Sequence record: PQ438391.1
Reading direction: 5' to 3' (one strand)
Length of the DNA stretch: 64,000 bases
Source: Escherichia phage vB_Eco_T-01
A program made the translations under genes and the position numbers. Shown in pieces: positions 50,877-51,415 of this stretch (position 1 is its first letter; every line of letters begins with the position of its first letter). The notes under the pieces are model-generated. The model did no database searches, was not told where the DNA came from, and saw nothing but the letters and a program-made list of their open reading frames with translations.

Positions 50877-51335
50877 ATGAAATACATGACTGTTACTGAT
50901 CTGAATAATGCAGGCGCTACCGTTATTGGTACAATTAAGGGCGGTGAATGGTTTTTGGGAACTCCACACAAAGATATTTTATCTAAACCTGGATTTTACT
51001 TTTTAGTAAGTAAATTAGATGGTCGTCCATTTAGTAATCCATGTGTGTCAGCACGATTTTATGTAGGTAATCAGCGTTCTAAGCAAGGATTCAGCGCAGT
51101 TCTAAGTCATATTCGTCAACGCCGGTCTCAGCTTGCTCGTACTATTGCAAATAATAATGTTCCATACACAGTATTTTATCTGCCTGCTTCTAAGATGAAA
51201 CCTCTGACGACAGGATTTGGAAAAGGCCAGTTAGCTTTAGCGTTTACTCGTAATCATCATTCTGAGTATCAAACACTTGAAGAAATGAACCGTATGTTGG
51301 CTGATAACTTTAAATTCGTTTTGCAGGCATATTAA
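50877..51335 (+). CDS. ndd: nucleoid disruption protein Ndd
   Basis: 152 aa from ATG after TAGAGGAAATTAAT; recognised as T4 Ndd. Confidence 0.9.
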
Positions 51336-51415
51336 TGAGTAATTTCCACAACGAACACGTGATGCAGTTCTATCGTAACAATCTTAAAACCAAAGGCGTC
51401 TTCGGACGCCAGTGA
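51335..51415 (+). CDS. stp: Stp peptide (modulator of host restriction / PrrC anticodon nuclease)
   Basis: 26-aa [34 protein letters not shown]-coupled to ndd; below ORF-track cutoff. Confidence 0.85.

Follow-up and report, generated by a model that had tools for sequence, protein, structure and literature searches.

The window analyzed here, the whole 64,000-nt stretch of DNA from Escherichia phage vB_Eco_T-01 (PQ438391.1), carries on its + strand a 26-codon open reading frame (ORF) whose product is the Stp peptide and whose last codons contain a UUCG hairpin. The original prediction, made from the sequence alone, had described the ORF, its TAATG overlap with the preceding ndd gene, and the hairpin, and all of these parts were confirmed on the sequence. 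The genes and features of the locus are the following.

50877..51335, + strand: ndd (nucleoid disruption protein), 152 codons; Pfam PF06591 Phage_T4_Ndd at 317.8 bits; PHROG 1102; position as in T4 and RB3
51335..51415, + strand: stp ORF, ATG start, 26 codons plus TGA; product, the Stp peptide
51338..51388, + strand: conserved functional core of Stp, codons 2 to 18; conserved in the homologs of Tevenvirinae, Drexlerviridae, Kagunavirus, and Caminolopintovirus
51395..51410, + strand: C(UUCG)G hairpin made up of GGCGTC (51395..51400), TTCG (51401..51404), and GACGCC (51405..51410); six Watson-Crick pairs
51414..51425, + strand: ac translation initiation region; GAGG Shine-Dalgarno sequence (51414..51417) overlapping the stp TGA, ATG at 51423..51425
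51423..51581, + strand: ac (acridine resistance protein, a small membrane protein), 52 codons; position and length as in RB3; PHROG 2501
51574..51714, + strand: 52.1, 46 codons, whose start overlaps ac; product, a small predicted membrane protein; DUF7396 at 81.9 bits over residues 1 to 46 of 46; position as in T4 and RB3
51719..53047, + strand: gene 52, 442 codons; medium subunit of DNA topoisomerase II; closes the gene block downstream; length and position as in T4 and RB3

The gene order ndd-stp-ac-52.1-52 is that of the T-even phages, as judged against the T4 and RB3 annotations and from the family matches of the neighbors, and the RefSeq records of both phages list "stp: activator of host PrrC lysyl-tRNA endonuclease" at the same position, between ndd and ac. 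A search with 50600..51800 gave matches in 552 phage records, which come almost exclusively from T4-like phages of Escherichia, Shigella, and their relatives, with the best full-length matches among those listed being about 98% identical, and a 151-nt stretch around stp shows only five differences from T4. The TAA of ndd (51333..51335) and the ATG of stp (51335..51337) share one base, which is the coupling originally described; because of this overlap and the weak Shine-Dalgarno sequence of stp, we infer that the gene is probably read by ribosomes coming straight from termination at the ndd stop.

Upstream in the same window, the large subunit of topoisomerase II is encoded by a single 605-codon ORF (43510..45327, + strand), which matches a large-subunit PHROG and, at residues 452 to 605, a second topoisomerase II PHROG. 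In T4, this subunit is split between genes 39 and 60, with a translational bypass in gene 60. Judging from its sequence, the unsplit subunit would make the window part of a T4 relative without the 39/60 split.

Identity and Relatives of the Stp Peptide

A bare ORF of 26 codons, far below the usual ORF length cutoffs, is uninformative; it is the family match and the identity to T4 that lift stp above chance. Alignment with T4 stp, which the original prediction had proposed as a check, gave a peptide identical at 26/26 positions to the annotated Stp of T4 (NP_049878), and the same was found for that of RB3. The product matches the Pfam profile PF08133 (Anticodon nuclease activator family) at 75.3 bits (cutoff, 25; E = 2e-21), with residues 1 to 26 covering profile positions 1 to 26 of 26, and matches PHROG 6763 with E = 4e-21. 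Together with the T4 gene order, these results bear out the proposed identification, and 51335..51415 is almost certainly stp, carried by a T4-like phage (Tequatrovirus).

What is known of Stp comes from T4, in which the peptide is both necessary and sufficient for activating the latent tRNA-Lys anticodon nuclease PrrC, its target being the type Ic restriction-modification complex EcoprrI, which masks PrrC; restriction by EcoprrI and by EcoR124I is relieved by Stp (PMC3014915). The link to EcoprrI and PrrC made in the original prediction is, therefore, the textbook function of the T4 peptide (PMC3014915). Suppressor (loss-of-function) mutations of Stp cluster at residues 4 to 14, removal of the last 8 codons causes only a moderate drop in both activities, and among T4 relatives the N-terminal 18 residues are almost invariant while the remainder is polymorphic (PMC3014915). 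A 2025 review (PMC12707154) continues to list the mechanism of EcoprrI inhibition by Stp as unknown, and the window adds nothing on this point.

The Stp peptides of the window and of T4 are identical over the N-terminal 18 residues, including positions 4 to 14. By its identity with the tested T4 peptide, the window Stp would be an inhibitor of type Ic restriction and a trigger of PrrC: its N-terminal 18 residues would act on the EcoprrI complex of the host, so that restriction is blocked, and in prrC-carrying hosts this action would unmask PrrC, with cutting of tRNA-Lys as the result. The phage mends the cut tRNA-Lys with polynucleotide kinase and RNA ligase 1.

Searches with TBLASTN found the Stp peptide in 817 phage records, T4-like phages and siphophages together, the latter comprising Rtp and Tlsvirus (Drexlerviridae), Kagunavirus (K1ind2 and ZCEC5), Nouzillyvirus, and Caminolopintovirus; a scan of viral contigs with a degenerate DNA pattern yielded about 60 further homologs. 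All share the core S-[NS]-[FWH]-H-N-E-H-[VI]-M-Q-[FWL]-Y-R, followed by a variable tail. In our alignment, the core is conserved and the tail variable, as published for the T4 relatives, and this holds in other phage families as well. When codons 2 to 18 of the window gene are compared with those of K1ind2, 10 codons differ, all of them synonymously, with 0 amino acid changes, and the remaining siphophage homologs have the same synonymous bias. Since changes in these codons are mostly synonymous, the comparison indicates that stp is a real coding gene under strong purifying selection on its peptide.

Two of the siphophage homologs, both in T1-like phages, have a neighborhood of some interest. 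The Rtp homolog lies near gp4, which matches the PNKP HAD phosphatase domain at 63.6 bits (L003; 495..1034 and 1483..1575), and that of phage U136B lies near U136B_012, annotated as a polynucleotide kinase/phosphatase (L011; 801..881 and 1451..1654). The presence of Stp close to such genes suggests that the contest over anti-restriction and tRNA repair, in which an anti-restriction peptide is paired with a repair function, reaches beyond the T-even phages. A search of plasmids recovered a single Stp match (CP088689.1, 40360..40434, - strand; 96% identity over 25 residues). This record, filed as a 44,086-bp nonmobilizable plasmid of E. coli, has a size that, with the 25-residue match, suggests that it is a Kagunavirus-like phage genome.

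The gene, its peptide, and the PrrC/EcoprrI story are thus already known, and nothing at this locus is new in kind. Its practical value, small as a discovery, lies in annotation: of 28 public T4-like records that were sampled and have an identical stp, 18 show ndd alone at this place, 7 give only "hypothetical protein" or another name, and 3 name Stp. Automated pipelines, in other words, routinely miss this defense-relevant microgene or leave it unnamed.

An RNA Hairpin in the Last Codons of stp

The hairpin GGCGTC-TTCG-GACGCC was found exactly as reported. It occupies codons 21 to 25 together with base 1 of codon 26 (GGC GTC TTC GGA CGC C). Its end is separated by 2 nt from the stop codon and by 3 nt from the GAGG of ac, and the ac ATG lies 13 nt downstream of the hairpin. 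It is present in both the minimum-free-energy and the centroid folds of 51300..51460, and the hairpin alone has a predicted energy of -10.0 kcal/mol. A search of 50500..52200 with the Rfam covariance models gave no match at E ≤ 1.

The chance of such a structure was evaluated over all synonymous codings of the peptide KGVFGRQ, with weights taken from codon usage in the window's long ORFs. Under these weights, and with the peptide fixed, a Watson-Crick stem of at least 6 bp arises with P = 0.002 and the observed 16-mer with P = 1e-4. Four of the codons used are rare (GGC, 15%; GTC, 8%; TTC, 25%; and CGC, 12%), and the five wobble positions in the hairpin are all set for a perfect stem and a UUCG loop. 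The siphophages Rtp, K1ind2, and ZCEC5 code their G-V-F-G as GGA GTA TTT GGA or as GGG GTG TTT GGA, with a folding energy of 0.0 kcal/mol, so that the hairpin is not forced by the protein sequence.

T4-like phages with a GVFGR tail provide 12 distinct sequences, in which 72/72 pair cells hold standard pairs. They fall into four structural variants, given here with the change and its effect on the structure.

T4 type: no change; 6-bp stem, UUCG loop
GVFGR* type: TAA in place of the Gln codon (moved stop); the closing pair becomes G-U
VR7 type: UUUG loop; stem intact
JS98 type: GGT for GGC; one U-G pair

No double compensatory change occurs in the hairpin among these 12 sequences, and a shuffle control equals the observed value. 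The variation consists of two G-C to G-U changes, transitions that are expected under neutrality, and covariation adds nothing either way. Wobble positions vary at 2 of 5 sites inside the hairpin and at about 12 of 18 elsewhere in stp, which does not make the former clearly more conserved. Phages T2 and TOPO13 keep residues 1 to 18 of Stp, have the tails NFGILGFKK and NFGILGSKNS, respectively, and lack the hairpin, and the ribosome-binding site of ac in the T2 type is different (GAGGAGAA...). The absence of the hairpin from these phages shows that it is dispensable for a phage. In both records, stp is unannotated (T2, L005, 801..884; TOPO13, L008, 801..887).

We conclude that the hairpin is very probably under selection at the RNA level. 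It is a separate RNA-level feature laid, through rare codons, over the dispensable C-terminal tail of Stp and, as such, offers a clean case of an RNA structure accommodated in a dispensable peptide tail by codon choice.

C(UUCG)G hairpins were reportedly first described in T4 mRNAs, by Tuerk et al. in 1988. They are abundant in T4, predominantly intergenic, and able to stop reverse transcriptase, and their functions vary, one of them being the stabilization of gene 32 mRNA (PMC8948821). In the window, TTCG is by far the commonest loop, being found in 10 of the 52 perfect + strand hairpins with a stem of at least 6 bp and a 4-nt loop. When stems of at least 5 bp are considered, 11 TTCG hairpins lie on the + strand and 4 on the - strand, a sense-strand enrichment that argues for an RNA-level role of the class. 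Nine of the 11 are at gene ends, where they overlap a stop codon or begin no more than about 7 nt from one, and the two inside ORFs are the stp hairpin and one at 26394..26413. The stp hairpin is a gene-end hairpin of this large and known class, found at the ends of genes all through the early regions of T4-type phages, that has moved a few bases upstream and is, hence, translated. The original prediction noted neither this membership nor the position of the hairpin in the dispensable part of Stp.

The nine other + strand hairpins by stop codons (8626..8641, 10992..11011, 12262..12281, 17576..17589, 19521..19538, 32597..32618, 43440..43457, 48721..48738, and 48950..48965) lie at or just past these codons, and their stems are mostly near-identical versions of (A)AGGGC/GCCCTT. 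Those at 12262 and 43440 are followed by agCTTTAt and, after about 12 nt, by TATAAT, and that at 19521 is followed by ggagTATAAT; these motifs resemble the middle promoters of T4 (a Mot box and a -10 element), and the units may be composite terminator/promoter elements. The hairpin at 32597 has a clear T-run. The second coding-embedded case (26394..26413, + strand; TCCCCCTC-TTCG-GAGGGGGA) has an 8-bp stem and occupies approximately codons 16 to 22 of a 114-codon ORF (26349..26693; head vertex assembly chaperone, gene 40-like), 38 nt past the stop codon of a uvsX-like gene.

Possible Roles of the Hairpin

In a polycistronic ndd-stp-ac-52.1-52 transcript, the hairpin would form a very stable structure, at which 3'-to-5' exonucleases entering after a downstream cut would be halted, with the result that the ndd-stp segment would acquire a lifetime of its own. 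Blocking mRNA decay or marking a processing boundary is the most likely role among those considered, and that of a decay barrier in particular, to which the position of the hairpin and the analogy with its class point, is a serious but tentative proposal. The stabilization of the message that the original prediction had suggested is, in this light, plausible. Since the hairpin lies in translated sequence and ribosomes would melt the stem each time stp is read, such a role is weakened while the message is being translated. A literature search for maps of T4 transcript 3' ends found nothing usable. Taken as a whole, the best explanation of the locus, which we consider probable, is a T4-type stp gene with a selected hairpin of the known class acting as a decay barrier and not as a terminator.

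Termination before ac, which the original prediction had offered as an alternative, finds some encouragement in the G+C-rich 6-bp stem and the very stable loop, but the stem is followed by AGTGAGGAAAATATG, which has no T-run, and the terminator scan makes no + strand call there. The U-tract required of an intrinsic terminator is absent from the + strand tail, AGTGAGGAAAAT, and the first convincing + strand terminator comes at 53198..53219, after motA.1. Moreover, ac begins only 13 nt downstream and is overlapped by 52.1; this spacing leaves no room for a promoter, so that both genes should be read from transcripts crossing the hairpin and depend on read-through. This part of the prediction does not stand, and an intrinsic + strand terminator can be given next to no likelihood. 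The palindrome might, instead, work on the - strand, as an intrinsic terminator for leftward antisense transcripts into the early region, and the scan indeed flags GGCGTCCGAAGACGCC followed by TTTGGTTTTA as terminator-like, with a predicted energy of -9.1 kcal/mol. However, its T-rich tail stems from Lys and Thr codons and is lost in the VR7- and JS98-type phages that keep the hairpin (AGTTAATTTCAG), the stable UUCG loop exists on the + strand only, and it is on that strand that UUCG hairpins are enriched. On the - strand, the genes to the right stop at 56050, with a 14-bp terminator-like hairpin after them (56007..55975), and the nearest late-promoter motif of that strand lies at 62194, on which grounds little antisense transcription should reach stp. 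We regard this role as highly improbable. A service to the translation of ac, by keeping upstream RNA off its Shine-Dalgarno sequence and start or by slowing ribosomes at the stp stop for reinitiation, would suit the close spacing of hairpin, GAGG, stop codon, and ac ATG, as well as the fact that other UUCG hairpins of the window closely precede a ribosome-binding site (e.g., 48721..48738 and 48950..48965) and that hairpin and ribosome-binding site are conserved together and, in T2, replaced together. Yet when 51300..51470 is modeled thermodynamically, opening the ac initiation region (51412..51435) costs 6.88 kcal/mol in the wild type and 6.99 ± 0.67 kcal/mol across the 1,536 synonymous recodings of codons 21 to 26; the wild type stands at the 48th percentile, and an insulating effect on ac initiation is, therefore, not seen. 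In addition, T2-type phages express the same ac gene without the hairpin, and we find this role distinctly unlikely.

It is also conceivable that the hairpin has no present function and is a relic or passenger, either of a former intergenic gene-end hairpin into which the stp frame grew or of a conserved junction that moves along with the ac ribosome-binding site during the recombinational exchange of modules. In favor of this, the hairpin and TGAGGAAAATATG are invariant together in 12/12 hairpin-bearing T4-like sequences although the gene that follows differs, the T2-type tail, hairpin, and ribosome-binding site are replaced as one block, the second copy of a JS98-like duplicated stp-ac module keeps the hairpin despite having lost its start codon, and compensatory covariation is absent. 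Against it stand the codon choice, which is very improbable under phage usage (P = 0.002), and the sense-strand enrichment of the class (11 against 4); furthermore, the GGCGTC stem is unrelated to the common AAGGGC stem, which argues that the stp hairpin is not a copied cassette. A mere passenger or recombination junction comes second to the decay barrier and is, on this evidence, unlikely. A stem selected as an RNA element, which would act as a decay barrier, is the explanation that we prefer.

A related idea is that the hairpin, with the invariant UGAGGAAAAUAUG after it, serves as a small portable junction on which selection acts in two ways, for an RNA element and for a recombination joint. 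If this were true, T4-type phages could swap or duplicate the stp module together with the variable genes for ac-like membrane proteins behind it. The tandem duplication of the JS98 type, the block replacement of the T2 type, and the presence of different genes behind an identical junction are all compatible with the idea and none of them demonstrates it; we consider it a long shot.

Several structures found alongside may be recorded here. The hairpin at 55975..56007 (- strand; 14 bp), past a 218-codon - strand ORF (56050..56706), lies inside the 3' end of a + strand ORF (55777..56049) and looks like a boundary of convergent transcription. Two T4-like contigs of about 170.5 kb (L076, reverse strand, about 4077..4460, and L066) have two stp-like copies approximately 295 nt apart. 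The first copy is VR7-like, has an ATG, and is followed by an ac-like gene; a truncated 52.1 start is then joined at a GAGTAAT microhomology to the second copy, which has a T4-like tail and CGG for ATG and keeps the hairpin and TGAGGAAAATATG before a second ac-like gene. This arrangement looks like a module duplication by illegitimate recombination. A programmed bypass like that of T4 gene 60, in which a GGA codon stands next to a UUCG hairpin, was considered and rejected: in stp, the GGA belongs to the 3' arm of the stem instead of preceding the stem-loop, and ac is provided with a Shine-Dalgarno sequence and an ATG of its own, in another frame.

Comparison with Known Systems

The T4 locus is matched in the sequence of Stp, in the upstream ndd with its TAATG overlap, in the downstream ac, 52.1, and 52, and, base for base, in the hairpin. 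Nothing of substance differs, and the window is that of a close T4 relative, set apart by its unsplit topoisomerase large subunit. The Stp homologs of siphophages (Rtp gp6, U136B_009, and STGO-35-1 gp63, as well as the unannotated ones of K1ind2 and ZCEC5) are of the same length class and have the same N-terminal core, and the K-G-V-F-G tail of the window Stp is shared by Rtp and the two Kagunavirus phages. In contrast to the T4-like genes, they have no hairpin (0.0 kcal/mol), possess a Shine-Dalgarno sequence of their own, and stand among other neighbors, without ndd or ac.

With the C(UUCG)G hairpins of T4, the stp hairpin has in common the UUCG loop, the C-G closing pair, a short perfect stem (2 to 8 bp in the class), its place on the sense strand, and a location at the end of an early gene, shortly upstream of the following ribosome-binding site. 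It is unlike them in not being intercistronic, as it lies wholly in translated codons 21 to 26, in having a GGCGTC stem unrelated to the common (A)AGGGC one, and in being followed by neither a T-run nor a promoter-like sequence.

The PeSL cassettes (promoter-early stem-loops) of T4-type phages (PMC2839356 and PMC4122927) likewise have a conserved stem-loop at a gene boundary within a variable region, and the stp stem-loop, too, is tied to module exchange, as seen in the JS98-type duplication and the T2-type replacement. No promoter-like site was found from 51410 up to the start codon of ac (51423), nor did the scan flag any nearby on the + strand. The stp stem-loop thus differs from these cassettes in being coding and in having no adjoining promoter, and the portable junction considered above, if real, would be their promoterless, coding counterpart.
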